Shown: piece by piece, positions 724 to 51,766 of the stretch | Layout of the letters: the number at the start of each line of letters is the position of its first letter | Numbering within the stretch: position 1 is the first letter of the stretch | Source of the DNA: a bacterium | Lineage (GTDB): Bacteria > Patescibacteriota > Minisyncoccia > Phycocordibacterales > UBA9973 | Assembly (NCBI GenBank): GCA_027484965.1 | Contig: JAIXRY010000008.1 | Location: 1,069 to 65,068, forward strand | Reading direction: 5' to 3' | Length of the DNA stretch: 64,000 nucleotides | Made by a program: the position numbers and the translations under genes | Notes under the pieces: generated by a model | The model's input: the letters and a program-made list of their open reading frames with translations, nothing else | Databases searched by the model: none | Told to the model about the DNA's origin: nothing

Positions 724-2478
724 TTATTCAGAAACAACGCGGAGAACTTCTTCTGTGGTTGTATATCCTTGCACAGCCAAAAATATTCCATCTTCAAGCA
801 TGGTTGTCATACCTTCTTTTTTTGCTTGAATTTCTATAGCGTCAGCAGAAGCACCTGAAATAATAAGATCTTTTATTGTTGGTGTTACTTTAAGTACTTC
901 ATGGATACCAACACGTCCTCTATACCCATCTTCCGTATCCGCACTTTTCATTGGTTTGTAAAAAGGGACGTCTTTCCATTCTGCGTCTGGCGCAATTACA
1001 TTTTCATCTTTCAAAACCTTCATCATTCTATCTAAATCAACTATCTTCCCTAACGCTTTCAATTCATTCTCATTCATAAAATACTTTTCTTTTGAATCAG
1101 AAAGTCTTCTGACTAGACGCTGTGCAATAACTGTTTTCAAAGTTGAAACCAAAAGAAATGGTTCTGCACCCATATCAATAAAACGTGGTATAGCGCCCGC
1201 CGCTGAATTAGTGTGAATTGTTGATAACACTAAGTGACCAGTAAGTGCTGCATTAATAGCAAGTGAAGCTGTTTCTCCGTCACGGATTTCACCAACCATT
1301 ATAATATTAGGATCTTGACGAAGAAGTGCACGGAGACCATTTGAGAAAGTCATTCCTATATCAGAACGAACTTGTGTTTGATTAATACGAGCCATTTGAT
1401 ATTCAATAGGATCTTCAACTGTTGAAATGTTTACATCTGGAGTATTCAACATATCAAGCATTGTATAGAGGGTTGTTGTTTTACCGGACCCTGTCGGACC
1501 AGACGCAAGAATCATTCCTGTGTGGAGTTTCATTGCTTCATGAATACGCTCAAGTGCATCTCCATGAAATCCTAATTTCTCAAGAGAAAATCCTTTTGCA
1601 TTTTCACGCAAAATACGAATAACTGTTTTTTCTCCAAAATATGTTGGGATTGTAGAAACACGAAAAGAAACTTTTTGATCGTCATTTGAAATTTTGAAAC
1701 GTCCGTCTTGAGGAAGACGTTTTTCATCAAGTTTCAAATTTGAGAGAACTTTAATACGAGCAACAATACCAGAAGCAGAGTCTTTTGGAAGCACCATGGC
1801 GTCACGCAATATTCCATCAATACGATAACGCACAACAAGAGACTCTTCTAAAGGTTCAATATGGATATCTGATGCTTCTTGTAAAATAGCATGTGAAATA
1901 AGAGTATCTACAATTTTTACAATTGGTAAATCTTCAGCAAGTTGCTTGAGTTCTGCTTCAGAAGCAGGTTCTTTATTGTTTTCTAGAGCTGTTGCTTTTA
2001 TTGATATTGTTTCCTTTTGGATAATATCATCAAATTCTGCTCTAAGACTTTTTTTATAAAGAGTGAGTGCATGTTTGATAGAAGGAACATCTGTAAGACG
2101 TGGGAGAATTTTTTGCTCTAATTTCTTTTTTAAGAAATCTATTGTTGATATATCATTAATATCAAGCATCGCAACTTCAATAGTAGTGCTTGTTTTTTTG
2201 TACGCTACAACATTATGATTTCTCGCAATAGGTTCAGGTATAAGAGAAAGAACATCAGCTTCTATTTTTTCATCAATAAGTGATACAAAAGGAACACCGA
2301 GAACATACGCTTGAGCTCGACGTAGATCTGTCTCTGAAATTTTATTTTCTGAAACAAGAATATCGGTAAAAGGAGTTCTCTTTTCTTTAGACATTTCTAC
2401 GGCGCGAGAAATATCTGCCGATGTAACAACACCAGCATCAATAAGAAATGTTTTTAAACTTTCTTCACTAATTACCAT
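724..2478 (-). CDS. pilB: Type IV pilus assembly / T2SS ATPase PilB/GspE family
   Basis: Walker A GPTGSGKTTTLY, an N-terminal GspE-N-like region, and a conserved EDPIEYQ / hexameric secretion ATPase core. Confidence 0.9.
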   Translation of the reverse strand: MVISEESLKTFLIDAGVVTSADISRAVEMSKEKRTPFTDILVSENKISETDLRRAQAYVLGVPFVSLIDEKIEADVLSLIPEPIARNHNVVAYKKTSTTIEVAMLDINDISTIDFLKKKLEQKILPRLTDVPSIKHALTLYKKSLRAEFDDIIQKETISIKATALENNKEPASEAELKQLAEDLPIVKIVDTLISHAILQEASDIHIEPLEESLVVRYRIDGILRDAMVLPKDSASGIVARIKVLSNLKLDEKRLPQDGRFKISNDDQKVSFRVSTIPTYFGEKTVIRILRENAKGFSLEKLGFHGDALERIHEAMKLHTGMILASGPTGSGKTTTLYTMLDMLNTPDVNISTVEDPIEYQMARINQTQVRSDIGMTFSNGLRALLRQDPNIIMVGEIRDGETASLAINAALTGHLVLSTIHTNSAAGAIPRFIDMGAEPFLLVSTLKTVIAQRLVRRLSDSKEKYFMNENELKALGKIVDLDRMMKVLKDENVIAPDAEWKDVPFYKPMKSADTEDGYRGRVGIHEVLKVTPTIKDLIISGASADAIEIQAKKEGMTTMLEDGIFLAVQGYTTTEEVLRVVSE

Positions 2479-2649
2479 TACTTATATTTTCTCATAGTCT
2501 CTCTTTAATAGCACTAGAAAACTTGTGGACAAAAAACCACTCGGATATTTTTTAAAAAGACACGTAAATTTTTTGCTAAAAATTTACTCCTTCCGTCGCC
2601 AGACTCGACTCCAGAGGTCTTTTTAAAAACTATACTCGTTTAATAATAA

Positions 2650-2690
2650 AAACAAGGATGGCGCCCAACGGGCGCCATCCTTGTTTTTTG
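2650..2690 (-). terminator. Intrinsic terminator between the secreted-protein operon and pilB
   Basis: Perfect hairpin caaggatggcgcc-caac-ggcgccatccttg followed by a T-run on the minus strand. Confidence 0.7.
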
Positions 2691-2697: not shown

Positions 2698-4017
2698 TTA
2701 ATAAGTAATTTTTACTCTTCCATTACCACCAGAACCATTAGTTACTCCAGAAACAGTTGTCCCTCTTGTACCTCCTTGTCCTATAGTGTATGTGAATTGC
2801 TCATTTGGTGTTACAGGTAAAGTTATTTTTATATAACCACCAGCACCTCCACCGCGAGCTGTATTAATTTGAGTGCTTCCAGGTAATCCTACACGTATTT
2901 GTGTAGACTCTTCACCTGAACAGTAATCCCTTCCTGGATTTGTCACTAAATAATAAGGACATACTTGTGATGGTCCTTGGAAAGTACCAGAACTACCAGA
3001 CCCATAGAATCCATAATTACCTGTTCCTCCACCAGGTGTACTTCCTCCTCCACCAGGAATAGCGCCGTTTGCACTCTGGAATACTCCGTTTTGAATATTT
3101 GCTGGATTTGAATTTCCATAAAAATTTGGAGCTGCTGGAATAAGACTACAGTATTGTTGTGCATCGCTCAAACTTGCTGCTTTTCTACCAGCTGTTATTG
3201 TTTGAACACCTAAATATGAAGCTCCTCCAATAGCACCATCTCCTCCATCAGAACCATATCTGAAAAAATATGGATTTGATGGACAATTATAATCTCCAAT
3301 AAGTTGATCTAGTTGATTATATGCTGGAACTCCACCATTTCCACCTGTATGTATTTCTGATACTAAAGATGTAGAGCGGCCACCAGAGACACTTGCCGAA
3401 CCTCCAGTACCATTTCCTCCAGAATTTGCATTTGTACCAGCATTTGCAGTAACTGAAATATTTGTTCCTTGGAATACTGTATTTGTTGGAGAAGTTTGAG
3501 AGTTTGAAGAAATATTTGTATATCCTGCACCCCCAGCTCCCCAAACTTCAACAGTAACACTATTAACACCTGTTGGAACAGTCCACGAACCACTAGTATC
3601 AAAAATACGCACATTAGTATTTATTGGACAAATATTTAGTTGGCCAGTACTAGAGACACAGACTTTCTGAGGTGTTGTAGTTGATGATACACCAGAAAGA
3701 CTAACACTTTTTGTACTTAAATTACCTGTAATAGCTGTATTTCCTTCTGAAGTAATACCTTTTGTGTACAAAGAACCAAAGATATCTAGCTTAGCACCAG
3801 CTGTTGGGAACATAAGAGATGAATTACCAAGTAAAACTGATCCTATCCTAGAATCTATAGAATCACCAGTATTCCAAACAGATATTTGACCATTTGGATA
3901 TCCTCCAGATGGTCTGGCAGCAAACAATTCAACATAATTAACAACAATCACAAGTACAAGTATTGCTGAAAATAATTTTATAAAAGGTAAGTATTTTTTC
4001 ATATATATTATGGACAA
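2698..4017 (-). CDS. Secreted Gly/Ser/Thr-rich orphan protein with N-terminal signal anchor; carries the Cys-x9-Cys-Pro module internally
   Basis: N-terminal hydrophobic segment (alternative start at MKKYLPF, 4002). Low-complexity G/S/T/N-rich sequence. Internal motif ...SLSGVSSTTTPQKVCVSSTGQLNICP shared with the next two genes. Confidence 0.5.
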   Translation of the reverse strand: MSIIYMKKYLPFIKLFSAILVLVIVVNYVELFAARPSGGYPNGQISVWNTGDSIDSRIGSVLLGNSSLMFPTAGAKLDIFGSLYTKGITSEGNTAITGNLSTKSVSLSGVSSTTTPQKVCVSSTGQLNICPINTNVRIFDTSGSWTVPTGVNSVTVEVWGAGGAGYTNISSNSQTSPTNTVFQGTNISVTANAGTNANSGGNGTGGSASVSGGRSTSLVSEIHTGGNGGVPAYNQLDQLIGDYNCPSNPYFFRYGSDGGDGAIGGASYLGVQTITAGRKAASLSDAQQYCSLIPAAPNFYGNSNPANIQNGVFQSANGAIPGGGGSTPGGGTGNYGFYGSGSSGTFQGPSQVCPYYLVTNPGRDYCSGEESTQIRVGLPGSTQINTARGGGAGGYIKITLPVTPNEQFTYTIGQGGTRGTTVSGVTNGSGGNGRVKITY

Positions 4018-4382
4018 ACAATAAATTTACCAGAACTATTGACACACAACTCTCTATTTGATGAACCAGATAATTTTGAAACAGTCATATTTGTTGTATC
4101 AAAATTATAGTTATTTTGTGTATTTGCAGGAACAACTAGACCTTTAGTAAAGAGAGTTCCATTAATATCTAGAACGACTCCAGAGGTTGGAGCATTTGTC
4201 ATACCCACTGCAAGAGAAGCGTTTCTAGATAAATCATTTGTTGATTTAGTAATAAAAACATTAAAAGGTTGTGAAGCTTGACTATAAGAGGACGGTCTTG
4301 TTGCTTTCGCACCTATTATATTTGCAAAAAAGATAATAACAAGACAAACAAAAAATAAATTTACTATTGAATATTGTTTCAT
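4008..4382 (-). CDS. Small secreted orphan protein ending in SGSSNRELCVNSSGKFIVCP
   Basis: Signal peptide. C-terminal Cys-x9-Cys-Pro module paralogous to the neighbouring genes. Confidence 0.5.
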   Translation of the reverse strand: MKQYSIVNLFFVCLVIIFFANIIGAKATRPSSYSQASQPFNVFITKSTNDLSRNASLAVGMTNAPTSGVVLDINGTLFTKGLVVPANTQNNYNFDTTNMTVSKLSGSSNRELCVNSSGKFIVCP

Positions 4383-4386
4383 ATAT

Positions 4387-4923
4387 TTATGGGCAAATAG
4401 TTAATGAGTTAATAGTAAAATTAAACATTGTATTATTTTGAACAATACAGACATTTCTATTGCCAGACCCAGCAAAGTCTGTAACAGTAACATCACCATC
4501 CGTACTTGAATTAGTTGTCTTTGATATTGTTGTTGTACCTGAAACAAAAGTTATACCATCTATTAACAACCCATCACTTTTACCATTAGCAGGAAGATTA
4601 AGAGAGCCCGCTTTTGTAATTCCATTTACATGAACTGTTTCTCCAAGTCTTGGAGGTGTCATGAAAGTCTGAACACCATTATAAAAAGGTTCAGAATTTA
4701 CACCTATAGCTATAGCTCTTCTCACAACATCAGCAGATGTTCTATTTGCTGGCGCTTCACCTAATTTACTTTGCGCTACAGTCGAACCTAATCCAGACCT
4801 GATAAGTTCTGGAGGTTGTCCACCTGGAGGTGTTTGTGTTGGAGCAGCGTAAGAAACACCTAACACAGAGAGAATTACAAAACTAACTATAACGACTGAC
4901 TCTTTTAGTGAAAAATATATCAT
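4387..4923 (-). CDS. Secreted orphan protein ending in AGSGNRNVCIVQNNTMFNFTINSLTICP
   Basis: Sec-type signal peptide. Conserved TKG...SG.S.R.LCV..CP-type C-terminal module. Confidence 0.5.
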   Translation of the reverse strand: MIYFSLKESVVIVSFVILSVLGVSYAAPTQTPPGGQPPELIRSGLGSTVAQSKLGEAPANRTSADVVRRAIAIGVNSEPFYNGVQTFMTPPRLGETVHVNGITKAGSLNLPANGKSDGLLIDGITFVSGTTTISKTTNSSTDGDVTVTDFAGSGNRNVCIVQNNTMFNFTINSLTICP

Positions 4924-4924: not shown

Positions 4925-7024
4925 TTACTCTTCTTTATAAAATGGGGCTGGTAAAATATTTGTTCCGAAACGCCACAACAATCTTCCTCCTCTACCTGTA
5001 AGTGGATTAGTCACAATAAATAATCCAGGCTCAACACCTTTAATTCCAACAATAGTTGACGCTGTTACAGTTTTTCCAGAAGGTGTTTTACATTCAATAG
5101 TAAACATTTCTGATGTTGAACCTATAGAAACTGTTTCTACTCCTGACAATGATTTTCCACCTGTCCAGACTCCAGTAGCCCCAGCAGTACCTCCTGCAGC
5201 AGAACTAAATCCAGTAGAAGCAACACAATTACTTGCATTTTCACCATCCCAACGTAGTAGTGTTGTAGAATTTGGATCTACTACTTGTGGAAACGCTGAA
5301 AGTCTCAAACCTGAAGCATTAACTCCTCCTGTAATATCTCCACCAGTAACACCAACTCCAACAGAACCACCACCTGGACCAATTCCGCCAGCGCCTCCTC
5401 CTCCAGAACCAGTAACAACAGAAACATCTTCACTACTTGTAACTGTTTGACTCGTTGAACTATTTGTACAAGTAATAGTAAATGTTCTAGTTGAAGTTCC
5501 TGATCCTACATTTACATTAGTTGAACCAGAGGTTGCTTTTGAACCAGTCCAACCAGATATTGACGCATTATTACTTGCCGCACAAGTAAACCCTGTAAGA
5601 TTTTGAGATGTCCAAGAAATATTAATATTACTATTTTCTCCAGTAATTGAAGGACTTGCGTTTAGTGAAACACTAGGTATTAATGGAGAACCAGTTCCAC
5701 CAGTACCTCCACCGCCGCCAACAGTACAAGAAATAACATTGTATGAAATTGGAGAATTATAACGTACTGAAACTGATCCTGATCTTGAAACAGAACCACT
5801 ACCACTTCCTTGAAGAACACCATTCAAAGTACAAACACCTGAAGGGACTTGTGCAAGAGGAGTTACATCAAAATATGTCGAGTGTGTTTCAGCTCCGTCA
5901 GTAGTTACAACTTGAACACGATGATTGCCTGAACCAGCAACAAGGTCGCGTGGAATTGTCATTCTAATAACAAAGCTTCCTCCTATGTTAAGACTCAAGA
6001 ATCTAGGATCATAAGGATTAACTGTGTCGTTAGGGTCTGGTTGTGCTTGTGGCACAGCAACACCATTATATAAAAGACTAAATGTTGAACCTGCAAGCGC
6101 TGGATCTGAAGTACCTATAGCTGTATATAGAGTCTTTGTGGTTGGATTTCCATAAATAGTAAGAGGTATATCAAAAGAAACATTAGCTCCACCTTCCACA
6201 AAAGACGCAGGGTAAGGAACACTTATATCGAACCAAGGAATTGGAGTTCCTGAAAGGATTGAGACTGTAGCACTACTTGTAACAGTCTGACTGGTTGAAC
6301 TGTTTGTACAAGTAATAGTGTATATTTTTGTAACTGAACCTGGACCAACATTCACTACAGCTGTACCAGAAGTTGCTTTTGAACCAGTCCAATCAAGAAG
6401 AGATGCATTATTACTTGCTACACAAGTAAATCCTACAAGATTTTGAGATGTCCAAGTAAGATTAAGATTACTATTTGGAAAAATAGATGTTGGAGTTGCT
6501 GTTAAAGAAACACTAGGAACTTGTTGTGTACCTATACCTACACCAGTAAAATCTATCCAACCAATAGTATTATTCCAGGCATATCCATAAAAATTATTAT
6601 TTCCTCCTCCAACAATCTGAACACCGCTTAGATCAATACATCCATTGCTACCTAATGAAATAATTTTAGCTGGACCTAAAAGTCCAGGACTTGCAACAAG
6701 TCTTGGACTTCCATTATTACAACTCGCAATATCTGACGGTTCAAAAGAAATCCACCCAACATTGTCATTCCACGCATAACCAGAAAATATGTATGCGCCA
6801 GCATTATTATCTACATAAGTGACACCATAATTTGTACCCACACAACTAGAAGGTGATGTTGTTGAACAGTTATTAAACGAAATCCATCCAATAGCATCAT
6901 TCCATGCATATCCAAGAATTTTATCTCCCGCACTTGATAAGGCCTGATTTGGAGTATAAAAATTAAAGGCAAATAAGAAAATAAGCGTTCCGAGAGATGA
7001 AAAAATTATGTTTTTTATTTTCAT
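4925..7024 (-). CDS. Large secreted repeat protein (699 aa): three N-terminal GYAWND-IGWISF motifs and two Ig-like Cys-containing ~70-aa repeats
   Basis: Signal peptide. GYAWNDAIGWISF, GYAWNDNVGWISF and GYAWNNTIGWIDF motifs. Near-identical ~70-aa repeats (WTSQNL.GFTC.ASNNAS..WTGSKATSG...FTITCTNSSTSQTVTSS), also repeated at DNA level (5432-5640 and 6272-6480). Confidence 0.55.
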   Translation of the reverse strand: MKIKNIIFSSLGTLIFLFAFNFYTPNQALSSAGDKILGYAWNDAIGWISFNNCSTTSPSSCVGTNYGVTYVDNNAGAYIFSGYAWNDNVGWISFEPSDIASCNNGSPRLVASPGLLGPAKIISLGSNGCIDLSGVQIVGGGNNNFYGYAWNNTIGWIDFTGVGIGTQQVPSVSLTATPTSIFPNSNLNLTWTSQNLVGFTCVASNNASLLDWTGSKATSGTAVVNVGPGSVTKIYTITCTNSSTSQTVTSSATVSILSGTPIPWFDISVPYPASFVEGGANVSFDIPLTIYGNPTTKTLYTAIGTSDPALAGSTFSLLYNGVAVPQAQPDPNDTVNPYDPRFLSLNIGGSFVIRMTIPRDLVAGSGNHRVQVVTTDGAETHSTYFDVTPLAQVPSGVCTLNGVLQGSGSGSVSRSGSVSVRYNSPISYNVISCTVGGGGGTGGTGSPLIPSVSLNASPSITGENSNINISWTSQNLTGFTCAASNNASISGWTGSKATSGSTNVNVGSGTSTRTFTITCTNSSTSQTVTSSEDVSVVTGSGGGGAGGIGPGGGSVGVGVTGGDITGGVNASGLRLSAFPQVVDPNSTTLLRWDGENASNCVASTGFSSAAGGTAGATGVWTGGKSLSGVETVSIGSTSEMFTIECKTPSGKTVTASTIVGIKGVEPGLFIVTNPLTGRGGRLLWRFGTNILPAPFYKEE
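5432..5640. repeat. Intragenic ~210-bp direct repeat (copy 2 at 6272-6480) encoding the Ig-like Cys module
   Basis: Long near-identical stretches such as agttgcttttgaaccagtccaa and attattacttgc...cacaagtaaa...agattttgagatgtccaag. Confidence 0.8.
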
Positions 7025-7026: not shown

Positions 7027-7356
7027 TTATTGATTCTTTAAAAATTGATTAACAAGATCTTCGTCTGCTGTTTTAGATTCTTCAGGTGAAACAGTGGCAG
7101 ACTCTTGTTTATTAAGAGTTTCTAGCATTTTTTGTTTTTCTTCATCAGTAGTTGATATTGATGCAGCTTTTTGTGCAACAGCCTCGACACTCTTCTCTAT
7201 TTGAGTTTGTTTTGGTTTTTGATTTTTTTTATAAATCAAAAAAATAGTTACAAGAACCACAAGAACAATAATTCCAGAAATAATAAGTGAGAGTGTTTTT
7301 TTGCTCATATATAGACGGTAAGCAAAAGATGTAGGTTCTTTGTGTATTGGATCCAT
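7027..7356 (-). CDS. Small single-pass membrane protein (first gene of the minus-strand operon)
   Basis: Hydrophobic helix LSLIISGIIVLVVLVTIFLIY. Alternative start at MSKKTL (7308). No prepilin G/FTLIE motif. Confidence 0.4.
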   Translation of the reverse strand: MDPIHKEPTSFAYRLYMSKKTLSLIISGIIVLVVLVTIFLIYKKNQKPKQTQIEKSVEAVAQKAASISTTDEEKQKMLETLNKQESATVSPEESKTADEDLVNQFLKNQ

Positions 7357-25771: not shown

Positions 25772-26701
25772 TTATTTTTTCTTACTATGAAACTTTTTAT
25801 GTACTTCACGAAGTTGAGCATCAGTAACGTGCGTATACACCTGCGTCGTTGCAATATTCGCATGACCGAGCATCATCTGAACAGAACGAATATCAGCACC
25901 ATTTGAAAGAAGATCAGTAGCGAATGAGTGACGAATAACGTGAGGTGTAACCTTACGAGAAATACCAGATGCGATTGCGTACTTTTTTACAATACGTTCG
26001 ATAGAGCGAGGAGTAAGTCTATTTGTTTCTGATTTCCTATTTGAACTCTGTAGAAACATAGGCTCTTCCATATCTTTTCTATTTTCCAAATATTTTTTAA
26101 TAGCACTCTTAGCATCGTCAGAGAGAAATACTACGCGCACCTTTTCACCTTTTCCACGAATTGAGAATTCATCTCGAGTAAGATCAAGATCACGATTAAG
26201 AGAGCAGAGTTCAGAAAGACGAAGTCCTGTAGAGAAAAATAACTCAAGAATAGCTTTATCGCGAAGACCTTGGAGACGTGTCATATCTGGCGCTTTTAGA
26301 AGTCTGTCGAGCTCATTTGTTGTCATTAGATCAAGTTCGCGACCCTTTATCTTTGCAAGTTCAACTCTATCTGGAGTCAGAGCAGTAATGCTTCTTTTCA
26401 TTAAATACTTCAAGAAAACACGAAGAGCAATCATGTGATAGTTCTGAGTATTCTTTTTCAAATTTGCAGATGCTTGTCCGCGAACTTTTACACCTGGTTG
26501 GCGATTGAGAAAAAGTCTAAATTCACGAACGTTGTCGTCATTAATATCAGAAGGGGACTTTATCTTTGCTTGTTCAAAAAAACGAGTGAGATATCTGTCA
26601 TAATTCTCAACAGTTTTTAGACTTGAACCTTTTTCAATTTCCAAATATTCGAGAAATTGTCTTTTAATTACATAAATGTCCATATATCTAGTGTCGCACA
26701 A
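25772..26701 (-). CDS. xerC: Tyrosine site-specific recombinase XerC/XerD family
   Basis: Catalytic residues R...HxxR...Y: RHSFATDLLSNGADIRSVQMMLGHANIATTQVYTHV. Probable start at MDIYVIKRQFLEYL (26683). Confidence 0.85.
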   Translation of the reverse strand: MCDTRYMDIYVIKRQFLEYLEIEKGSSLKTVENYDRYLTRFFEQAKIKSPSDINDDNVREFRLFLNRQPGVKVRGQASANLKKNTQNYHMIALRVFLKYLMKRSITALTPDRVELAKIKGRELDLMTTNELDRLLKAPDMTRLQGLRDKAILELFFSTGLRLSELCSLNRDLDLTRDEFSIRGKGEKVRVVFLSDDAKSAIKKYLENRKDMEEPMFLQSSNRKSETNRLTPRSIERIVKKYAIASGISRKVTPHVIRHSFATDLLSNGADIRSVQMMLGHANIATTQVYTHVTDAQLREVHKKFHSKKK

Positions 26702-32190: not shown

Positions 32191-35100
32191 ATGAGTGAAC
32201 CAAAACCAGGAAGTACTGAGTGGTACAATCTTCAAGCTAAAAAAATTAATGAGAGCGTCGGAGACTTTCCTCCACTTGAAAAAACCCCAGAATCTGAGGA
32301 CAAAGATCATGTAGCGGAAAAGAATGAAGAAAATTCTGAGGCCGTTATATCTGAAGTCGAAACATCAAAAACAGAAGAGAAAAAGAAAAAATGGTTGAAA
32401 GAGAAGCTCAGGGAGATATTCGACGCCAAGAAAGACAATCCAAAAAACAAATCAGAAACCATAGAAGAAGAGGGCGTGCGCAAAGCAAAAGAATATAGAG
32501 AAAAAATTGAGGAGAGAGTACAAAATAAGTACGGCAAATTCATGCACGTAAATGAAGATGGTACTCTACCCGAAGGCAATATTAGTCCCGAAATGTTCAA
32601 GGAATTATCTGATGGTCAAATTCTTCTTCTTGAACAGCGCCTAGATGGACAACGCGCATCATATGCAAAACAGATCGCCCGAGAGAAATATATTGATGAT
32701 GCTGAAGCGGCAAAGACCGCCGGATTGTGGAAAAAGATTAAAACTCAGGTCGGCAAGCATGGCATAATTGCTAAATATGAAGAGGAAGCACTTAAGGATA
32801 CTGAAAATGCAGTAGACGTCTCACTTACATTCGACACAATTAAAAATAAGGAGGTATTAGTGCGTGATGGTAAGCCAGAAATCAACTATAATGCAATCCT
32901 TGGCGTATCTTCTGATTATCCAGACTTCTTAAATACAGCGAACAAACTTGCAAATATGTCTTATGACGCAACTGTCGACACCTCTTCAAAAAGAGAGCAC
33001 GAAACTTTTAAGAGGTTAGAAAAAAAATTTGAGATGGAAAAACATGAGATGTTAGAAACTCTCAAAGAATACTACAGTGAAAACGAAGCGATGGAACGCA
33101 TGCGCCAAGTAGAAAATGAAATAGAAATGGATCGTGTTCTCGATGGTAATCAATTACTTGCACGCAAAATAAATAGCACTATACATTCATCAACATGGAT
33201 AAAAAGTATTGGTGGATGGGCTAGGGATAACAAAATGGGATATGCTGCTATGGGTGCCGGAGTCCGTGCGGGTCTTAAAGCTACTGCTGTGATGGGAGGA
33301 TTGACTGCAACAGGAGCGTCACTCCTCGCCGCTCCACTTATTGGTCTAGGTGTTGGTTATTTACGCGGTAAAGCAAAGGCTCAAGATACTCTTAGTGATG
33401 ACCTCAAATTGGTCCGCAATTCTGACAAAAAACAAAAAGGATTAGTTAATGATGGAGCTACCGATGGTCGTCGAGACCTATTTACCAGTGTAGACCAACA
33501 AAAAAGCCGCATGGAAAGTTTGATTGGAAAGATAAATAAAACTGGTAACTTTACCGAAAATCTCTCCTTGCGCAATCAACTCAAGAACCGCCTCGACTTC
33601 GCCCGAGAGAAATTAGAAAGCGGTCATATGTCTTTCGGTAAAGGTAAGGAGGCCTTCGCCAACAAATACGAATTTTATAAAATACTTGATGAAGCAGCAG
33701 TAACACTCGCGCTTAATGACGAGGAAGCACAGGAAAAGTTCAATGAGAATATTGAACGAATCTTCGGCTACGACACAGACAAGAATCCAGAAGAAAACAG
33801 CGCTGATGCGCGTTATCAAGTACGCGTAAATAATTTACAAAATACTACCAGTGAACACGAAAAAGTTATTTCATTAAGGGAAAAAGATTACGTTATCCGA
33901 CAAGCGAAACGTTCCGCAAAGACTGCAGCACTCTTTGGTCTTGGTGGTGCGGCAGTAACTTCAGCGGCAATTCATATTGCAGAAAATATTCCTGCTTTCG
34001 GCCACATGAAAGATTGGATAGCTGGTTTAGGAGGTAAAGCAGAAACAACAGAGACTACAAAAATTATTGATAAAGAATCAGTCGCAGGAGGTAGTACGGT
34101 TCCAAAAGGTTGGTCACAAGAAAAACCAGATTGGGCAAAAGAACCAGTTCGACCAGATTACAATCCAAAACTACGAAGTGATGAAGATGTTAGAAATGAA
34201 TTATTAGGATCTCTTGCTCTTGTACAAAAAGGTGATGGAGTAACAAACCCTCTCGCGCGCCAAATAGAAGAGATGTTGAAAAATCCAGAACAAGCAAAAA
34301 GTCTTGGATTTGATGGAAAAAATCCTCACAAATTTGCACTCAAGAAAGCAGCCGAACTTGCAAAAGAATATGGATACATCAAACCAGATGGAAGCGAGGT
34401 AAGACTTGGGGCAAATTCCATAGATCACGCTTCTTACGAAGTAAAGATGTTCGATGGAAAACTTGCAGTTAACGAAACTTTTGATGGTAAAGATATGACA
34501 GAAGGTAATATTGATAAAGAATATGAATATTCATACAAAAAAGAACCAAAAGTCTCCACACCTTCTGAAGAAGAAATAGTAAAAGTTCCTACAAACAAAT
34601 CTAATATAAAACCTGACTTCAAATTCCTCCAAGATAAAAATAATCCTGAATGGATTGAGGCAAACAAACCAACGATAGACGGGGAAACAAAACTCGCTCA
34701 AGACATAATTAAAGACAAGAATAATCATTTGGGGCAAGAATTACAGAAGTATCATGACTATGTGAAAGCCGAGACTGGTAAAGATATAGCAGTGAAGTCA
34801 GACGACACTCCAGAAACATACAAAAAGTCTCTTGATGAAGCACTCAAATCTTCTGGAAAAAAGATTCCCACAGAAACTATTGAGAATATAAAAACAAAAA
34901 ATCCAGACAAAATTACAAATATTGAAAAACCAATTATAAAATCAACTGAATTAATTAAACAAGAAGATATTGATTTGTACAAAGAACAATATGAAAATGG
35001 TTTTGGAGAAAAAATACATAAAGAACTATCATATTTTATTAGAGAAGGTGCAATTGATAACTTACGTACATTGAAAAATGTTAAACAAGAAAATATAGAC

Positions 35101-35508
35101 GATACGTACAATAATATAGTAGACAATATGTTTTCAGTTTATAAACCAATAGGAAGTGCCGTTAACAAAGAAGACATTCTTGAAGTAAGAAGTATGCAAA
35201 GTACTAGAATTGGTTTTGTTAAATATCTTAAACTTAAAAAAGAAATTAATCCTTTATATAAAATATTTAATGAAGAAAAAGCTATAAATATTCTTTCTAA
35301 TAAAAAATACAGTTATTTAGTACAAAATATTACCGATATTAGAAAGTATATCAGCTTAAGTGAAGGTGTCGACGATATCCCACCAAACAACAATGAAACT
35401 TGTTCACAATATGTAAAAAGACTAGTAGATCAACTCGCAACAAAAAGTGGAAAAGAGTTAGATGATTTAGAATTTATTAGAAAAAAGTTTGAAGAAGAAT
35501 TTAAATAA
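32191..35508 (+). CDS. Very large orphan membrane protein (1105 aa) with acidic coiled-coil regions and two hydrophobic hairpins
   Basis: No signal peptide. Hydrophobic segments GYAAMGAGVRAGLKATAVMGGLTATGASLLAAPLIGLGVGYL and TAALFGLGGAAVTSAAIHIA. Otherwise E/K-rich. Confidence 0.4.
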   Translation: MSEPKPGSTEWYNLQAKKINESVGDFPPLEKTPESEDKDHVAEKNEENSEAVISEVETSKTEEKKKKWLKEKLREIFDAKKDNPKNKSETIEEEGVRKAKEYREKIEERVQNKYGKFMHVNEDGTLPEGNISPEMFKELSDGQILLLEQRLDGQRASYAKQIAREKYIDDAEAAKTAGLWKKIKTQVGKHGIIAKYEEEALKDTENAVDVSLTFDTIKNKEVLVRDGKPEINYNAILGVSSDYPDFLNTANKLANMSYDATVDTSSKREHETFKRLEKKFEMEKHEMLETLKEYYSENEAMERMRQVENEIEMDRVLDGNQLLARKINSTIHSSTWIKSIGGWARDNKMGYAAMGAGVRAGLKATAVMGGLTATGASLLAAPLIGLGVGYLRGKAKAQDTLSDDLKLVRNSDKKQKGLVNDGATDGRRDLFTSVDQQKSRMESLIGKINKTGNFTENLSLRNQLKNRLDFAREKLESGHMSFGKGKEAFANKYEFYKILDEAAVTLALNDEEAQEKFNENIERIFGYDTDKNPEENSADARYQVRVNNLQNTTSEHEKVISLREKDYVIRQAKRSAKTAALFGLGGAAVTSAAIHIAENIPAFGHMKDWIAGLGGKAETTETTKIIDKESVAGGSTVPKGWSQEKPDWAKEPVRPDYNPKLRSDEDVRNELLGSLALVQKGDGVTNPLARQIEEMLKNPEQAKSLGFDGKNPHKFALKKAAELAKEYGYIKPDGSEVRLGANSIDHASYEVKMFDGKLAVNETFDGKDMTEGNIDKEYEYSYKKEPKVSTPSEEEIVKVPTNKSNIKPDFKFLQDKNNPEWIEANKPTIDGETKLAQDIIKDKNNHLGQELQKYHDYVKAETGKDIAVKSDDTPETYKKSLDEALKSSGKKIPTETIENIKTKNPDKITNIEKPIIKSTELIKQEDIDLYKEQYENGFGEKIHKELSYFIREGAIDNLRTLKNVKQENIDDTYNNIVDNMFSVYKPIGSAVNKEDILEVRSMQSTRIGFVKYLKLKKEINPLYKIFNEEKAINILSNKKYSYLVQNITDIRKYISLSEGVDDIPPNNNETCSQYVKRLVDQLATKSGKELDDLEFIRKKFEEEFK

Positions 35509-38912: not shown

Positions 38913-38962
38913 ATTAAAATAGCGCGCCCCGACGGGGCGCGCTATTTTAATTGTGTTTTAAA
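38913..38962. terminator. Bidirectional terminator formed by a 26-bp perfect inverted repeat
   Basis: aaaacacaattaaaatagcgcgcccc-gac-ggggcgcgctattttaattgtgtttt. Confidence 0.75.
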
Positions 38963-39347
38963 ACCCAGAAGCTAGACCAGTATAATCAATAGTCCCTTCT
39001 GTAATAGGTAATTCTGTACAGTTTGGCTGAACACCAATCAAACAAACACCACCTTGTGTAGCCTTACCAAGCAGACGACTCATCATACTAATCTCTCCAT
39101 TTCCATAAATCCTTGTCATGCTATTTTCCAAATATGTTCCACTACTTCCAAAAGGTCCGCTTATAGTTAATTGAGACCCTCCATCAACATTACAAGTACA
39201 TTCTATTTTAGAAATAACTTGTCCTCCAAAATAGCTTCCTCCAAAAGAACCAAAACCCGCATAAACTTTTGATGTTATAAGCAACACAGCAATAAAAACT
39301 ACAGATAAAATACTAGCAGTTAAAATACTATTTTTATATTTCTTCAT
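38958..39347 (-). CDS. Small secreted Cys-containing orphan protein (129 aa)
   Basis: Signal peptide; Gly-rich; Cys pairs (ECTCN, GGVCLIGVQPNC). Confidence 0.35.
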   Translation of the reverse strand: MKKYKNSILTASILSVVFIAVLLITSKVYAGFGSFGGSYFGGQVISKIECTCNVDGGSQLTISGPFGSSGTYLENSMTRIYGNGEISMMSRLLGKATQGGVCLIGVQPNCTELPITEGTIDYTGLASGF

Positions 39348-39409
39348 ATATACAAGTATACATCATGTATGCACATAGTGTAAATTATAAATGTGGTATT
39401 ATTTAATTA

Positions 39410-40318
39410 ATGAATATAGAAAAATACAGACAATATCTTCCTAGTAAAAAATTCCAAAAAATACTTGGAAGTATAGTAATTGTTATTGTGGTAATAATAC
39501 TAATAAGCCTTGTAGGGTCTGGTAAAATACATATTACACAAAAACAAAAAGAACAAGCTGTTATTCAAAAAATGACTTTGAGTGAACTTGTTCAAAAAGA
39601 CACAGACAATGATGGCTCACCTGATTGGGAAGAAGGTCTTTTTGGTACAGATCCAAAACAACCAATTTCTAACAAACAAGGAATTCCTGATGGTGAATAT
39701 ATAAACAATCAAAAAAAGGCACAAGGAGGAGGTGATACTTCTAACTTAACAGAAACAGATAAAGCTGCTCAAGATTTCTTTATTGCCATCGAAGCATTAA
39801 AACAATCAGACAATCTTACTCCAACAGCTTTATATAACATAACTTCAAGCATATCTCAGACAATTCTTTCTGAAAAACTTCCAGAAACATATGCTTTTAG
39901 TGATGTAAAAACCACTGAAAATAATAAACAAAATCAGAAAAAATACATGACTGATTTTAAGAAAATACACAGTGATGCAATCAAAAAAGGACTTGGAAAA
40001 GAATTGGGCGTATTTATGCAAGCACTAGGTGAAGGGAATAGAGACCAGCTAGCGAGTCTTTCGAAATATGCAGATATTTACAAAAACATGTCTGTACAAT
40101 TAAAAAACATCCAGACCCCAGAAGACTTATCAACAAATCATTATTTGCTCATAAACCATTACGAGAGAATTGGAATTTCTCTGAATAATATTTCAGAATC
40201 TTTTGAAAATCCAACAAAAGGAATGATTGGTGTCGCTGGATATAAAAAATGGACTGAAGAATCAAATACAGTATTAAAAGATATTCAAGATTTATTTAAA
40301 CAATATGGTATACTATAA
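39410..40318 (+). CDS. Membrane-anchored secreted protein with a TSP3-like Ca-binding aspartate motif
   Basis: N-terminal helix; DTDNDGSPDWEEGLFGTDP...IPDGEY motif. Confidence 0.4.
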   Translation: MNIEKYRQYLPSKKFQKILGSIVIVIVVIILISLVGSGKIHITQKQKEQAVIQKMTLSELVQKDTDNDGSPDWEEGLFGTDPKQPISNKQGIPDGEYINNQKKAQGGGDTSNLTETDKAAQDFFIAIEALKQSDNLTPTALYNITSSISQTILSEKLPETYAFSDVKTTENNKQNQKKYMTDFKKIHSDAIKKGLGKELGVFMQALGEGNRDQLASLSKYADIYKNMSVQLKNIQTPEDLSTNHYLLINHYERIGISLNNISESFENPTKGMIGVAGYKKWTEESNTVLKDIQDLFKQYGIL

Positions 40319-42557
40319 AAACATTATGAGAGTATTCAAACTCCATTCAATCATAGGCTCAATTCTTATCTTTGCTTTTATAATAAGTCCTTTTGGATTA
40401 ATTGCTCAAGCTTTTAATTTAGAAAATTTAAATACAACAGATCTTACAAAAAGTGATTTGTTTGCAAACGATTTCGCTGGAGGAGGATATGCAATGCTTG
40501 ACTGTTTTGGAACCTCATCAAACATTCTTGATTCTATTCAAGGTTTTTTTGGTTCTGACGGTGGTCAAGATAAAGTAGCAGTTGATGACAAAACACAAAA
40601 TCTAAAAGAACAATGTCTTGATGCTGCAGCCCAAGTTAATGCCCAAAAAACAGTCGCTTCAATGTCTAAAAGTATTTTCAATTGGACTCAAACAGGTAAT
40701 GGAGGAAACCCTCTTTATGTAAAAGATTTTGGAAAATATCTAAGCAGTATTGAAACACAAGAAGTGGGTGTTCTAAAGAATAAATTCACTACTGAAATAT
40801 TAAATAACCCTGAGAAACTTCCTTTTGCAAAAGATGTAGTGAAGACAATGCAACAAGCAGACAAATCAAAAGATGATATTGTTGGAAACTTAACATATAC
40901 AGGACCAGACAAAAAGGCATTTTCAAACAGTTTTAAAGGTGGAGGTGGGTGGAGTTCTTGGCTTAAAGCAACACAAAATCCAGCAAACAACCCTATTGGA
41001 TTCAATCTAAAAGTTGGAGATGAACTCAAAAAGAAACAAGAAGAAGCTAAAGATAATATAAAAGAAGAGCTTAAACAAACAAGCTTCTTGCCTGTTCGTG
41101 AATGTGTAGATTCAAACTATAAATCAGACGGAACACCATTAACGGATGAGGATAGAAAAGCTGGAAAAACAGACATCTGTTCAAAATGGGATATAAAAAC
41201 ACCAGGCAGCCTCGTAAAAGACCAAGCGTCAGAAGCATCAAATTCTGCTTTAAATCTTGCACTAAATGCAGATCAGAAAGGTAAGCAGCTTAATGTTATG
41301 TTTGCATCTCTTCTTACTCAGCTCTTCAATCAAGGTTTTGCAACTCTCGGAAATAGGGCAAATCAAGTAATGAGCAATGTTCAGATATCTAGCAAAGTAC
41401 CTACATATGGAGATAATAGTGGATATAGCACAGAAGATGATGGGACAGGTGATTGGTTTGATTCTGTATGGGTTGGAGGAATAAGACCTCAAGATATTTC
41501 TATAATAATAAAAAATCAAAAAGATATTGCTAACAAGCTTCCAGAAAGAGTTTTAATTCTTCAATCAATAATAAACAAAACAAAAGAACTTGATTATTGT
41601 GTTCCAGGCCCAAATCCAATGTGGACTAAAGACCTTGGTGATTTTATAGGTATAAAAATGGAAGAAAATGGTAAAAAGGTAGAACCAGGTTTTGGAGAAA
41701 AATTCCTAAATATGGTCGCAAGTAACGGGAGTATAACAGGCGGGTTTGGTAGTACTGGGCTTATAGGGCTAATAGTAGGACTTCTTATGGAGGTTCGTGC
41801 ATTTAATTATTATTCCAGAGAAGAATTAAATGCTATATATCTAAAAAATACAATAACAGACACTAATAAATATTATGAATTTATTCAAAAGACTTACAAT
41901 AACCCTGCTTCATACCAAAAAATAAATTCAACGACTTACAACAACGATGAAGCAGTGCTAGATAATTTAGAGAAACTGTTTGAAATAAAAACAGACAGCG
42001 ACAGACAATATCTAAATATAAACTCATATCAAACACAAATAGAAAAGAATACAAGATATCTTTCTCTTACAAAAAAACAAATGGCGAGAATGCAGGATAT
42101 TTGTGTTCAAACACACAAGCTTTATGTACAAGCATACAACAGACAAATGCGCGAAAGAAATTCTTGGGAATCTTGGAATAAAAAAGGTCCAACAAAAGAA
42201 ATAATTGGTTACAGAAAAAAGAAATTAGTGAATGGTAAATATGAAGTAGATCCAAACAGTAAGCTATACTCTCCAGAAGAAGCGAGACTTAGTGTGACCG
42301 TGTTTAAAGCAGAACTTCCAAAAAAAGAAACTGAGCTGCTATTTGCATCAAATATTACTGAGCAATTCGACCAAAATGCATTTAATACTCTATATATTCC
42401 AGTAGAAGAGACAATCCCTGAACCAAAAAAAGTTCCTCCTCTGCCTCCATTTTCAGAATATGCACTTAACTGTTCTGGAAATATAGGTAACTTTAGTGAC
42501 CCTTCAACTATAACTGTACAGACATCTAACAATAACAATATTAAAAATACTGAATAA
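40305..42557 (+). CDS. Large membrane-anchored secreted orphan protein (750 aa)
   Basis: N-terminal helix (alternative start MRVFKLHSII at 40326); start overlaps the upstream gene by 14 nt, consistent with an operon. Confidence 0.4.
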   Translation: MVYYKNIMRVFKLHSIIGSILIFAFIISPFGLIAQAFNLENLNTTDLTKSDLFANDFAGGGYAMLDCFGTSSNILDSIQGFFGSDGGQDKVAVDDKTQNLKEQCLDAAAQVNAQKTVASMSKSIFNWTQTGNGGNPLYVKDFGKYLSSIETQEVGVLKNKFTTEILNNPEKLPFAKDVVKTMQQADKSKDDIVGNLTYTGPDKKAFSNSFKGGGGWSSWLKATQNPANNPIGFNLKVGDELKKKQEEAKDNIKEELKQTSFLPVRECVDSNYKSDGTPLTDEDRKAGKTDICSKWDIKTPGSLVKDQASEASNSALNLALNADQKGKQLNVMFASLLTQLFNQGFATLGNRANQVMSNVQISSKVPTYGDNSGYSTEDDGTGDWFDSVWVGGIRPQDISIIIKNQKDIANKLPERVLILQSIINKTKELDYCVPGPNPMWTKDLGDFIGIKMEENGKKVEPGFGEKFLNMVASNGSITGGFGSTGLIGLIVGLLMEVRAFNYYSREELNAIYLKNTITDTNKYYEFIQKTYNNPASYQKINSTTYNNDEAVLDNLEKLFEIKTDSDRQYLNINSYQTQIEKNTRYLSLTKKQMARMQDICVQTHKLYVQAYNRQMRERNSWESWNKKGPTKEIIGYRKKKLVNGKYEVDPNSKLYSPEEARLSVTVFKAELPKKETELLFASNITEQFDQNAFNTLYIPVEETIPEPKKVPPLPPFSEYALNCSGNIGNFSDPSTITVQTSNNNNIKNTE

Positions 42558-42561
42558 ATAT

Positions 42562-44664
42562 ATGTATAACGATCGTCGTAAAAAAATAATAAGAATTTCA
42601 TTAATTGTTCTAGGTATAATTATAATTGTTCTTATTTATTTATTTATAAAAAGCAAACAACAAACAGAAACAACGGGAAATAAAGGAAACTTTTTTCTAG
42701 ATCTTGGAAGTCTTATTACAGGTAAAAGACAAAACCCTAACGGTGTCTCTCTAACTCCAAATGGGAATGGCCTAGGTGGTAGCAATGGAAGTGGTAATGG
42801 GAACGGTAGCAATAATGGAAGTGGTAATGGGAACGGTAGCGGATCACCACTTGTTTTGGGGGGTCTACCAGAACCGACACCTATAGCTCAAAATATTGGT
42901 GGAGGTTTCGGAACAAACAACAGAGACTTATTCCCTGATAATCAAAATCCTAATAACTGTATTGGATGTAGTGGTTCTTTTGGTATAGGAAACGGCGACT
43001 TAGGAAGTGGAGGAGGTTCAGGAAACAGTGGTTTAGGTGGTGATGGATTGGGCGATGATGGTTTAGGTGGTGATGGATTGGGCGATGATGGTTTAGGTGG
43101 TGATGGATTGGGCGATGTGTCTAGTTATGTATATATAAATGCTGTCCCAAGTGCTATACACAAAGACGATGAAGTTACTGTTACTTGGGAATCTTCTAAT
43201 GTGAATACTTGTTTTGCAAGTTCATTCCCTGTAGTACCAGGATGGAATGGCTCAACAGGTAAATCAGGGACTAAATATTTTTCTCTAAATAAACCTACGA
43301 CTTTTATCATTAAATGTTCAACAACAAGTGGTACAGTTCAGGCTTCTGACTCTGTTTCAGTACTCGCAGATGATGTACCTTTGTGTAAAGAGGACAATAC
43401 TTGTTTTCTAGGAGATAGTGAAACAGGCAAGTATGTATCTGCCGTTATGGAAGCAAGTCCATACATTGTCGAGTCTGGTGATACGAGTTTGCTTGCATGG
43501 GACACAGAGAACGCTACCATGTGTAATGCAAACAGTGTTCCTCTGCGAGATGACTGGAGAGGATTAATACCTCAGAGTTCAGGAGAAACAGATATTACAC
43601 TTCCAAGTACACCTGTTACATATATACTTACATGTACAGACGGGAAGACTACAGGTCAAACAGATGTAACAATTTCAATAGACACATCAAAAATAGATGA
43701 CGGACGAGACTTTGGTGACGATCCTATAGATCTGTGTAGCAGGTCAGAACAAGAAAGAAATCCTCTTTGTTTAGTAAGAGATATTTCTATAGATGAAGAA
43801 GAGAAGATCCTCATTCTAACAAACGAAGAACAAGCCATTCTTGACTCTCTCATGAAAGAAGTTGCTATTATGTCTCCAACACTTCCTTCAAACCAAACGT
43901 CTTCTAGTCTTGATATTTCAACACAGACGTACAGAGCAATATTGAGCGACATAGAAAAAAATGTTAGTACTTGTTATGACCTCACACAAAATACATCAAA
44001 AAATCAAGATTTTATCGATGCTCTTTGGGAAAGGCAGATAGTAGGGAGAAGACCTTTACCATTTCTAGGGAACAGAAATCCAATATTTGAAATACCAATA
44101 AATCCTGGAGCAACAACATACATATATAAAAGCAAGGATGGTAGCACCACAGAAATAAAAATACCTAAAAACTTACAAATAGCAAGTGGAGGTAGTAAAG
44201 GTAGTTTTAAAATACCCATAATACCAGAAACAAGTACATATACATATACAGACCCAGTAAGAGGAGATAAGACAATAATACAAATACCAAAAGAACTACA
44301 AAATCCTATTCTTCAAAACATATCAATATATTTACAAAATCTATATCCAGTTAAGCCACCTTCTGCAAAATTACTCAAAAAATATTATGATTTTGCACGT
44401 TCACCTGGAAATACTTGGAGAGCTACAGAACTAGGAGAAGGAGAGAGAGATTGTCCAGGGCGCCGCATTACAACAACATACAAAAACGACATCCAAGGCA
44501 CTTTCATTTTCCCTTGGCTTGGAGATGGTTGTTGGTATATGAACTCATATAAGACAAATGAAGATGATGCACAAAAAGGTATATATGATCTTGTTCCAGG
44601 ATACGGACGTATGCAAGAGCAAGTAGAGTATGGATCAGACACAAAAGGAATAAAAATATTCTAA
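42562..44664 (+). CDS. Large secreted protein with low-complexity GN/GS and GDGLGD tandem-repeat linker and two Ig-like Cys-containing domains
   Basis: N-terminal helix. Tandem 27/30-bp DNA repeats (42781-42840, 43031-43117). Domains VTVTWESSNVNTCFASS...FIIKCSTTSG and LLAWDTENATMCNANS...YILTCTDGKT match the repeat family in the 4925-7024 protein. Confidence 0.5.
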   Translation: MYNDRRKKIIRISLIVLGIIIIVLIYLFIKSKQQTETTGNKGNFFLDLGSLITGKRQNPNGVSLTPNGNGLGGSNGSGNGNGSNNGSGNGNGSGSPLVLGGLPEPTPIAQNIGGGFGTNNRDLFPDNQNPNNCIGCSGSFGIGNGDLGSGGGSGNSGLGGDGLGDDGLGGDGLGDDGLGGDGLGDVSSYVYINAVPSAIHKDDEVTVTWESSNVNTCFASSFPVVPGWNGSTGKSGTKYFSLNKPTTFIIKCSTTSGTVQASDSVSVLADDVPLCKEDNTCFLGDSETGKYVSAVMEASPYIVESGDTSLLAWDTENATMCNANSVPLRDDWRGLIPQSSGETDITLPSTPVTYILTCTDGKTTGQTDVTISIDTSKIDDGRDFGDDPIDLCSRSEQERNPLCLVRDISIDEEEKILILTNEEQAILDSLMKEVAIMSPTLPSNQTSSSLDISTQTYRAILSDIEKNVSTCYDLTQNTSKNQDFIDALWERQIVGRRPLPFLGNRNPIFEIPINPGATTYIYKSKDGSTTEIKIPKNLQIASGGSKGSFKIPIIPETSTYTYTDPVRGDKTIIQIPKELQNPILQNISIYLQNLYPVKPPSAKLLKKYYDFARSPGNTWRATELGEGERDCPGRRITTTYKNDIQGTFIFPWLGDGCWYMNSYKTNEDDAQKGIYDLVPGYGRMQEQVEYGSDTKGIKIF
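43031..43117. repeat. Tandem 30-bp repeat (ggtttaggtggtgatggattgggcgatgat, ~2.9 copies) encoding GDGLGDDGLG
   Basis: Direct inspection. A second 27-bp tandem pair at 42781-42840 encodes NGSGNGNGS. Confidence 0.85.
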
Positions 44665-44700
44665 AACTAAAAGAAGTCCCGAAGGACTTCTTTTAGTTTT
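44665..44700 (+). terminator. Intrinsic terminator
   Basis: aaaagaagtcccgaaggacttcttttag. Confidence 0.7.
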
Positions 44701-44782
44701 AGAAACTATTATTTATACACAGATATATTATCTTACTATATATATTTATTTTTAAAAGAGGGTGGTATACTTATAGTATTAC

Positions 44783-47716: not shown

Positions 47717-47718
47717 TT

Positions 47719-48402
47719 ATGGATAATATTCAAGAAAAAGAAATCCCATACGAACTTTTTAAAGCAGTTGAAAAAATTGACTATAATTTAGTATTAAAAA
47801 ACATTGCAGATAACCACGATTTACACATCAATCAGAGTGCTTTACTTGATCGATCTTTAAAAGAGTATATATTCGGAGATATTGATGCAGATACTTTTGA
47901 AGCCAGTCTTGCAAGTATTACAAATAACAACAAAGAAGATTTTAAAAAACTTTTAGATGATGTAAACTCTAAGATAATCGAACCTGTAAGGGATATGTTT
48001 TTGGAATTAACAGTTAGAAAAGAAATTTTATTTTCAGATGATGATTTTGAAGACACAAACAGTACCGCTTCTATCGAAGAAATTGATCATCAAGCCTTAT
48101 ACGACGCAGGAATAGAAATAGAAGGATTTGTACCAAAGGCTCCTGAGAGGAAATATGGTGAGGAAATATTTCCAAATGAAGATCTTAGTGTTCATGAAAA
48201 AATGCTTAGTGAAGAATTGACAAAGATAAAACCTAAGGAGGTTTTGGAAATACCAAAGAAGCCAGAAATAATTCCTCAAAACTTTATGGAACAAAAATTG
48301 GGTGGGGTAGTAAGAAACACTTCAAGCAATAGCGACCAATCACTTCCATCAATAGCAAAAAAAGAAGTAGAAAAATTCGATCCTTACAGAGAAAAAGTGT
48401 AA
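47719..48402 (+). CDS. Orphan acidic cytoplasmic protein (227 aa), translationally coupled to the VirB6-like gene
   Basis: Start 3 nt after the upstream stop. Confidence 0.35.
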   Translation: MDNIQEKEIPYELFKAVEKIDYNLVLKNIADNHDLHINQSALLDRSLKEYIFGDIDADTFEASLASITNNNKEDFKKLLDDVNSKIIEPVRDMFLELTVRKEILFSDDDFEDTNSTASIEEIDHQALYDAGIEIEGFVPKAPERKYGEEIFPNEDLSVHEKMLSEELTKIKPKEVLEIPKKPEIIPQNFMEQKLGGVVRNTSSNSDQSLPSIAKKEVEKFDPYREKV

Positions 48403-48436
48403 ATAGTAAAAAGAGATTAGTTACTAAAAACATAGA

Positions 48437-48487
48437 AAATACAAGAGCGGGACCCGAAGGGTCCCGCTCTTGTATTTATTTTTTAGT
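48437..48487. terminator. Bidirectional intrinsic terminator
   Basis: aaaatacaagagcgggacccgaagggtcccgctcttgtattt. The core gcgggacccgaagggtcccgc is identical to the terminator at 11384. Confidence 0.75.
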
Positions 48488-48510
48488 TGCTTGGTAGTAG
48501 TTACTGTGCA

Positions 48511-48927: not shown

Positions 48928-49092
48928 ATAATATAGTATATAGCGAATAACCGACAGTGGAAAGGGAATATTATATTTAGTCGCACTTGCTCACATTTTA
49001 AAAGACACAATACAATATAATTCTGATAAATTAAACATTAAGGCGCGACAAGATTTCGAAAAACCGTATATTCACTAGTTAGTAACAACTAG

Positions 49093-49740: not shown

Positions 49741-49741
49741 T

Positions 49742-51751: not shown

Positions 51752-51766
51752 GATATACTAAAAAAT

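Follow-up and report, generated by a model that had tools for sequence, protein, structure and literature searches.

Three adjacent genes on the minus strand of a 64,000-nucleotide stretch of DNA from an ultrasmall member of the Patescibacteriota (contig JAIXRY010000008.1, positions 1,069 to 65,068; hereafter the window) encode paralogous proteins that we call A (4387-4923), B (4008-4382) and C (2698-4002). Their shared unit consists of a signal peptide and a domain of ~100 residues, rich in Ser, Thr, Asn and Gly, which carries two invariant cysteines at its end. In C, this module is followed by a glycine-rich domain. Judged by the searches described below, the module represents a new, previously undescribed domain family that is very small and restricted to a few lineages. 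We favour, with moderate confidence, the reading that A, B and C form a Sec-exported, disulfide-stapled adhesin or fibre complex at the cell surface of Paceibacterota.

The shared module and its three copies

An initial annotation of this DNA had listed three open reading frames (ORFs) on the minus strand at 4387-4923, 4008-4382 and 2698-4017, and had proposed tandem paralogy from their C-terminal strings. The frames and the quoted strings are exact, with the correction that C begins at 4002. B (124 aa) comprises the signal peptide and the module alone. It aligns over its whole length, signal peptide included, with the N-terminal ~130 aa of C (BLASTP E 2e-15 at 34% identity), and the profiles built from the orthologues of B and C match each other in hhalign with an E-value of 1.5e-24 and a probability of 99.6%. 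A (178 aa) has the same layout with an insertion of ~50 aa in the module, and its pairwise similarity is marginal (BLASTP E 3e-4 against B, 0.06 against C; hhalign 1.8e-3 when only close orthologues are included). The A-position proteins of two distant loci, L009 and L010, look intermediate, the C-terminus of the latter being ...ANRPICVNSSKQVIVCP. Once these A-type orthologues are included, the A and B/C profiles align in hhalign with a probability of 98.3% and an E-value of 1.4e-14; the 103 aligned columns begin at the cleavage region of the signal peptide and end at the terminal Cys-Pro. Furthermore, a hidden Markov model (HMM) of the module made without the A clade of the window returns every A orthologue as its best non-member match and nothing further in the window. 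Because the B-C alignment, the enriched A profile and the module HMM agree, we regard the three proteins as genuine paralogues on the strength of their sequences, and the proposed alignment withstands statistical assessment.

The similarity had first been placed in a C-terminal module only. It covers the signal peptide and all of mature B, and in C it forms the N-terminal domain (signal peptide and module, aa 1-126, 3625-4002). Homology reaches ~90 residues upstream of the cysteine motif, and three motifs recur along it: (A/T)RP..P.G(N/Q)...Q.(K/R).G.L..G, P..G..LD(I/V).G and (L)SG...R..C(V/I)..G....C. The ORF at 38958-39347, which had been suggested as a further relative, obtains an E-value of 28 with the module HMM and is unrelated.

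Both cysteines are invariant in 26 of 26 family members, and mature A and mature B contain exactly two cysteines each, namely this pair. The signature first put forward, Cys-x(8-9)-Cys-Pro, is too narrow in its spacing and in its proline. The spacing is x9 in B (Cys113...Cys123, 4014-4046; C-terminus ...SGSSNRELC-x9-CP), in C (Cys115...Cys125, 3628-3660) and in 17 of the 18 B/C-type relatives. A has x17 (Cys159...Cys177, 4393-4449; C-terminus ...AGSGNRNVC-x17-CP), and other A-type proteins range from x8 to x21. The proline follows the second cysteine in only about half of the members; the others either stop at the cysteine or have Q, A, V, S or G after it. C-type proteins carry the motif internally, and at least 300 residues follow it. 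Three distant members (L009:8920-9999, L010:1500-1976 and P0015) carry a second cysteine pair (PTCAPPSCN, PASCAAPGCN, PTCTAPSCN) in place of RPS..P.G(N/Q), which might give the module an additional mini-disulfide at its N-terminal end.

The N-termini show a basic start, a hydrophobic core of 15-20 residues and small residues at positions -1 and -3, so that the apparent cleavage site reads ...A-x-A followed by the conserved (A/T)RP or AP. Such segments are probably signals of the signal peptidase I type and not prepilin signals, with cleavage predicted at this site. The mature proteins contain 41-50% Ser, Thr, Asn and Gly and 8-13% charged residues, as against 23% and 28%, respectively, in the housekeeping proteins of the window. 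Fibrous or beta-rich proteins outside the cell typically have such a charge-poor composition, and the module is probably beta-rich. Its final motif most likely forms a beta-hairpin closed by an intramolecular disulfide, which would mark the end of the domain; in an AlphaFold2 (AF2) model of B, a weak hairpin is seen whose flanking strands carry the two cysteines.

Measured against the orthologues in L001, the ratio of nonsynonymous to synonymous substitution rates (dN/dS) is 0.12 for A, 0.15 for B and 0.15 for C, which identifies them as real, constrained genes under purifying selection. The corresponding values for PilB, NusA and PPase are 0.024-0.030, and the A, B and C proteins thus evolve about five times faster. 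Values of 0.12-0.15, well above those of housekeeping genes, are typical of exposed surface proteins. In a neighbour-joining tree of the modules, A-, B- and C-type sequences form separate clades, each with orthologues from several lineages; the duplications must be old, and all copies have been retained. The members of these clades occur in the same gene order in lineages whose identity is only 25-58%, which argues for non-redundant, co-operating roles.

The initial annotation could assign the module to no named family, and this judgement holds. Scans of Pfam, NCBIfam and PHROG gave no match covering the module as a whole, and PHROG gave none for A or B. A profile search of the PDB with the module returned 0 matches at E<=10, and sequence searches of the PDB were likewise empty. 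An HMM-based search for relatives, which had been recommended, was made exhaustively with HMMER in 1.84 billion representatives clustered at 50% identity and found few. Fifteen matches were obtained at E<=1e-3, about ten of them real: the three clusters of the window itself, five C-type proteins that combine the module with a glycine-rich domain (P0006, P0009, P0010, P0012 and P0015) and a B/A-like protein of 180 aa (P0014). The remaining matches were rejected as repeat proteins. Two scans of metagenome contigs with C-type profiles found no relatives, and a word-indexed homologue search, even with an 11-sequence profile, recovered near-identical B proteins only. Among the GTDB species genomes, the sole relative found is a metagenome-assembled genome of Candidatus Paceibacterota (L008). 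Counterparts of A, B and C belonging to the module family occur in L001, L004-L006 and L008-L011, and the relatives for which a genomic context is available show the same gene arrangement.

The glycine-rich domain of C

C has 434 aa when read from the ATG at 4002. Its C-terminal 300 aa make up the glycine-rich domain (2701-3615), the core of which is modelled by AF2 with a predicted local distance difference test score (pLDDT) of 80-90, the overall model of C having a pLDDT of 49.7. A Foldseek search with this model in BFVD gave 30 matches at E<=1e-3 (best 4.9e-8), mostly to proteins named 'Glycine-rich domain-containing', tail-fibre proteins or virion structural proteins. In its predicted fold, the C-terminal domain of C resembles these viral proteins. 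The Pfam family Gly_rich_2 (PF21722) points in the same direction: it scores 23.4-23.6 bits on C (E 6e-5), the gathering cut-off of 24.3 not being reached, and is matched weakly by 4 of 13 family members.

Searches outside these resources gave little. Foldseek found no significant match in the PDB, where the top entry is the glycine-rich domain of ALK (E 0.16) and a cyanophage fibre also appears. No tblastn match to phage genomes was obtained at E<=0.01 with either C or the junction between its cysteine loop and the glycine-rich domain (best E 0.04). The sole PHROG match is weak, concerns an unannotated family and spans aa 95-166, i.e. the last ~30 aa of the module and the start of the glycine-rich domain. 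C thus shares with the viral glycine-rich proteins (PF21722) a predicted fold and a layout of N-terminal attachment or shaft part and distal glycine-rich head. It differs from them in that the module has no counterpart in phage records and in that C is a cellular protein with a Sec signal peptide. The cysteine loop had also been viewed as a possible adhesin tip domain. This is acceptable in a loose sense, but the likeness to receptor-binding proteins resides in the separate glycine-rich domain and not in the loop.

The gene cassette and its surroundings

A, B and C are the last three genes of a five-gene cassette on the minus strand. The first gene (7027-7356), taken from the ORF list, encodes a single-pass membrane protein of 109 aa with a charged tail rich in Lys and Glu. 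It has an orthologue in the same slot in L001, L005, L006, L008 and L009, its dN/dS against the L001 orthologue is 0.18, and a Pfam scan gave no significant family. The second gene (4925-7024) encodes an exported protein of 699 aa in which, as read from the sequence, three repeats of the GYAWNDxIGWISF type are followed by near-identical, cysteine-containing immunoglobulin (Ig)-like repeats of ~90 aa. This Ig-repeat protein is kept in the same slot in L001 (587 aa), L005, L006, L008, L009 and L010, with a dN/dS of 0.14 against the L001 orthologue and no match in Pfam or PDB searches. The L001 orthologue is 112 aa shorter than that of the window, which suggests that the repeat copy number varies between lineages.

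In all loci with enough flanking sequence (L001, L002, L005, L006, L008, L009 and, in part, L010), the order is fixed: a divergent nusA, the small membrane protein, the Ig-repeat protein, A, B and C. The genes are tightly packed, with spacers of 1 nt between the Ig-repeat gene and A, 4 nt (ATAT) between A and B and 5 nt (TATAT) between B and C; the same intergenic spacing is found in L001, L005, L006, L008 and L009. An overlap of 10 nt between B and C had been reported and regarded as consistent with translational coupling. However, position 4017 is TTG and had been misread as a start codon, and the real ATG of C at 4002 (MKKYLPF...), 5 nt after the stop of B, is the start in every orthologue and in every public gene call. 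The argument from overlap falls with the misread codon. The short spacers of 1-5 nt and the lack of an obvious Shine-Dalgarno motif ahead of B and C are nevertheless compatible with coupled translation.

Directly 3′ of the C stop codon lies an intrinsic terminator (2648-2688, minus strand), a 19-bp GC-rich stem followed by UUUUUAUUAUU, in a window with a GC content of about 33%. Its predicted folding energy is -34 kcal/mol (z = -8.4). A scanner for consensus promoters and terminators overlooked this element, which emerged from inspection of the sequence and subsequent folding. A hairpin with a U tract, of unrelated sequence, occupies the same place in seven related loci. Together with the divergent nusA, the terminator implies that the five genes constitute one transcription unit which ends before pilB.

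The pilB gene (724-2478, minus strand) is separated from C by a gap of 219 nt and lies outside the cassette. It encodes a PilB-type assembly ATPase of type IV pili (Pfam T2SSE 4e-120; NCBIfam PilB/GspE) with an N-terminal MshEN domain (Pfam 4.4e-10). A match to the MshE-type motif for binding cyclic diguanylate (c-di-GMP) is sub-threshold, with 25 bits against a cut-off of 38, and hints that c-di-GMP might control pilus assembly through PilB.

Co-occurrence of the cassette with pilB and pilC had been proposed as a test and turned out to be weak. Downstream pilB-pilC and pilin genes are present only in the clade of the window (with L001 and L002) and in the L006/L008 clade, that is in two of five lineages. 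In L005, L009 and L010 the cassette is followed by genes for a Por_Secre_tail protein, EF-Tu and ribosomal proteins, and type IV pilus genes are not nearby. The constant neighbour of the cassette is nusA, not pilB. The Por_Secre_tail matches, which fall in the gene adjoining the cassette (L005:9222-10409, L009:11391-13013 and L010:3402-4745), concern the C-terminal domain of substrates of the type IX secretion system (T9SS). We know of no T9SS in bacteria of the candidate phyla radiation (CPR), and such matches are unexpected there.

Further features of the window lie away from the cassette. The ORF 38958-39347 stands at the edge of a type IV secretion system cluster of the Patescibacteria type (~38958-55606; monoderm and conjugation-like), which includes a PrgI family protein (48511-48927), a VirB4/TraG P-loop ATPase (49742-51751) and a T4SS_pilin domain inside a 774-aa protein (53282-55606). 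Several ORFs of 700-1100 aa have no Pfam match (32191-35508, 40305-42557, 42562-44664 and 44783-47716). A tyrosine recombinase on the minus strand (25772-26701; Phage_integrase 4e-43) with N-terminal SAM-like domains is a candidate XerC/D or mobile-element integrase.

A proposed surface assembly and its rivals

In the favoured reading, the products of A, B and C would be exported and would co-assemble outside the cell, together with the Ig-repeat and membrane proteins, into a single structure on the cell surface. In it, the module common to all three would serve as a stalk or assembly domain, pinned by the disulfide hairpin at its end. A and B, which consist of the module only, would act as subunits or adaptors, whereas the glycine-rich domain of C would form a distal head, probably binding a ligand or the surface of a host. 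The membrane protein and the Ig-repeat protein may act as anchor and spacer. What is observed beneath this proposal is the paralogy, the invariant cysteine pair, the signal-like hydrophobic N-termini, the operon with its synteny, the purifying but fast evolution and the resemblance of the C-terminus of C to viral glycine-rich domains; export, signal cleavage, disulfide formation, co-assembly and adhesion are what we infer from these.

CPR genomes are reportedly enriched in the families of MdbA-like oxidoreductases and VKOR, the makers of extracytoplasmic disulfides (PMC6744442), which makes the formation of such bonds plausible in these bacteria. Several results nonetheless weigh against a common, disulfide-stapled assembly. 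A scan of about 40 ORFs of the window revealed no gene for Dsb, MdbA or VKOR. Modelling of the module with AlphaFold, as the initial annotation had advised, gave little beyond the hint of a hairpin: in one AF2 run for C and one for B, each based on an alignment of 13 rows, the module stays below a pLDDT of 50. The Foldseek matches of C have low query-based TM-scores, none above 0.32, and could in part be due to a glycine-rich composition. Lastly, B is missing in L010, which has only A and C, and in L009 the B slot holds a full protein of module plus glycine-rich domain; a universal 1:1:1 stoichiometry is thereby contradicted.

The strongest alternative is one that we consider unlikely. A, B and C might be independent secreted proteins, such as soluble effectors, lectins or S-layer-associated proteins, that are paralogous by descent and share no complex. 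Each has its own signal peptide, the set of paralogues differs between lineages (A and C only in L010, two glycine-rich forms in L009), and the AF2 models hint at no assembly interface. However, the gene order and the A-, B- and C-type orthologous clades have been held over deep divergence, the spacing of 1-5 nt suggests stoichiometric co-expression, and the three genes always stand beside the same membrane protein and Ig-repeat protein.

We consider it rather improbable that the three proteins belong to the neighbouring type IV pilus as accessory or tip components other than pilins, similar in function to PilY1 or to the tip complexes of minor pilins. In that case they would be delivered by Sec and borne by the pilus, with the cysteine loop acting as the disulfide-bonded D-region of a pilin. 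In the window clade and the L006/L008 clade, the cassette immediately precedes pilB-pilC and the pilin genes, which would fit such a role. So would the pilin-like layout, since type IV pilins are also small and exported, with an N-terminal hydrophobic segment and a Cys...Cys loop near the C-terminus. In A, B and C, however, cleavage would probably take place C-terminal to the hydrophobic segment, and the class III signal is absent, with neither Gly at -1 nor Glu5. The strong terminator cuts the cassette off from pilB, and in three of the five lineages (L005, L009 and L010) the linkage to type IV pilus genes is lacking while nusA remains. An identity as type IV pilins or pseudopilins proper was rejected: the proteins give no match to a pilin HMM (N_methyl, PF07963, none even at E<=1) and have no pilin motif of G, cleavage and F/L...E, their N-termini reading MKQYSIVNLFF..., MKKYLPFIKLF... 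and MIYFSLKESVV... where true pilins of related loci show GFTFMET or GFSLIEV.

A further possibility concerns the cysteines themselves. In the Ena endospore appendages of Bacillus, neighbouring genes encode several small exported subunits that are paralogous to one another, and conserved cysteines govern assembly or stability. Were the two cysteines of A, B and C to form intermolecular disulfides in the same manner, a covalent fibre would result. The tandem arrangement of small secreted paralogues, the exactly two conserved cysteines of the mature protein and the failure of the monomer AF2 models agree with this idea, which we nevertheless judge quite improbable. The fixed x9 spacing with a conserved glycine in mid-loop fits a hairpin within the chain in B/C-type proteins, and the flanking strands are weakly paired in AF2. 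Furthermore, there is no detectable sequence relationship: A, B and C have no significant Pfam match (Gly_rich_2 on C being near threshold) and hence no tie to Ena/DUF3992, and the Ena cysteines lie in an N-terminal connector, whereas those of A, B and C lie at the domain end.

The initial annotation had also considered a secretion or anchoring tag, and a C-terminal sorting signal read by a dedicated processing enzyme is very improbable: although A and B, like proteins with LPXTG, PEP-CTERM, GlyGly-CTERM or T9SS C-terminal signals, carry a short conserved motif at their very end (some orthologues stopping exactly at the cysteine), this motif is internal in C-type proteins and belongs to a whole domain of ~100 aa with its own signal peptide and a variable proline, no transmembrane helix or basic tail accompanies it, no sortase, exosortase or rhombosortase-like gene is found in the cassette, and no sorting-signal model in Pfam or NCBIfam was matched, so that the class was rejected.

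Within the favoured reading of a surface adhesin or fibre complex, a more specific architecture can be imagined, to which we give only a slight chance. The five-gene cassette would build a hetero-oligomeric, disulfide-stapled fibre, in which the modules of A, B and the N-terminus of C are intertwined as a shaft that bears at its end a single glycine-rich head of the phage-tail-fibre type. If this were true, the fibre would be a cellular 'tail fibre' by which an ultrasmall episymbiont recognises and holds its host independently of type IV pili. Most simply, the mechanism would be a variant of a familiar theme, that of rapidly evolving surface or adhesin proteins which are stabilised by disulfides and carry a phage-like receptor-binding domain, and nothing points to a categorically new mechanism.

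With about 10 clusters in 1.84 billion representatives, the importance of the cassette is local to a few lineages and not general. The module defines a new domain family and would be a possible addition to databases of protein families. Members of the Paceibacterota and other CPR bacteria are believed to live fixed to the cells of a host, and to our knowledge almost nothing has been reported on the mediators of this attachment outside Saccharibacteria. The cassette encodes a conserved, fast-evolving and apparently exported set of proteins in which an unannotated assembly domain would be combined with a phage-fibre-like head. This makes it a concrete candidate for a structure by which Paceibacterota attach to their hosts, one that may act independently of type IV pili.

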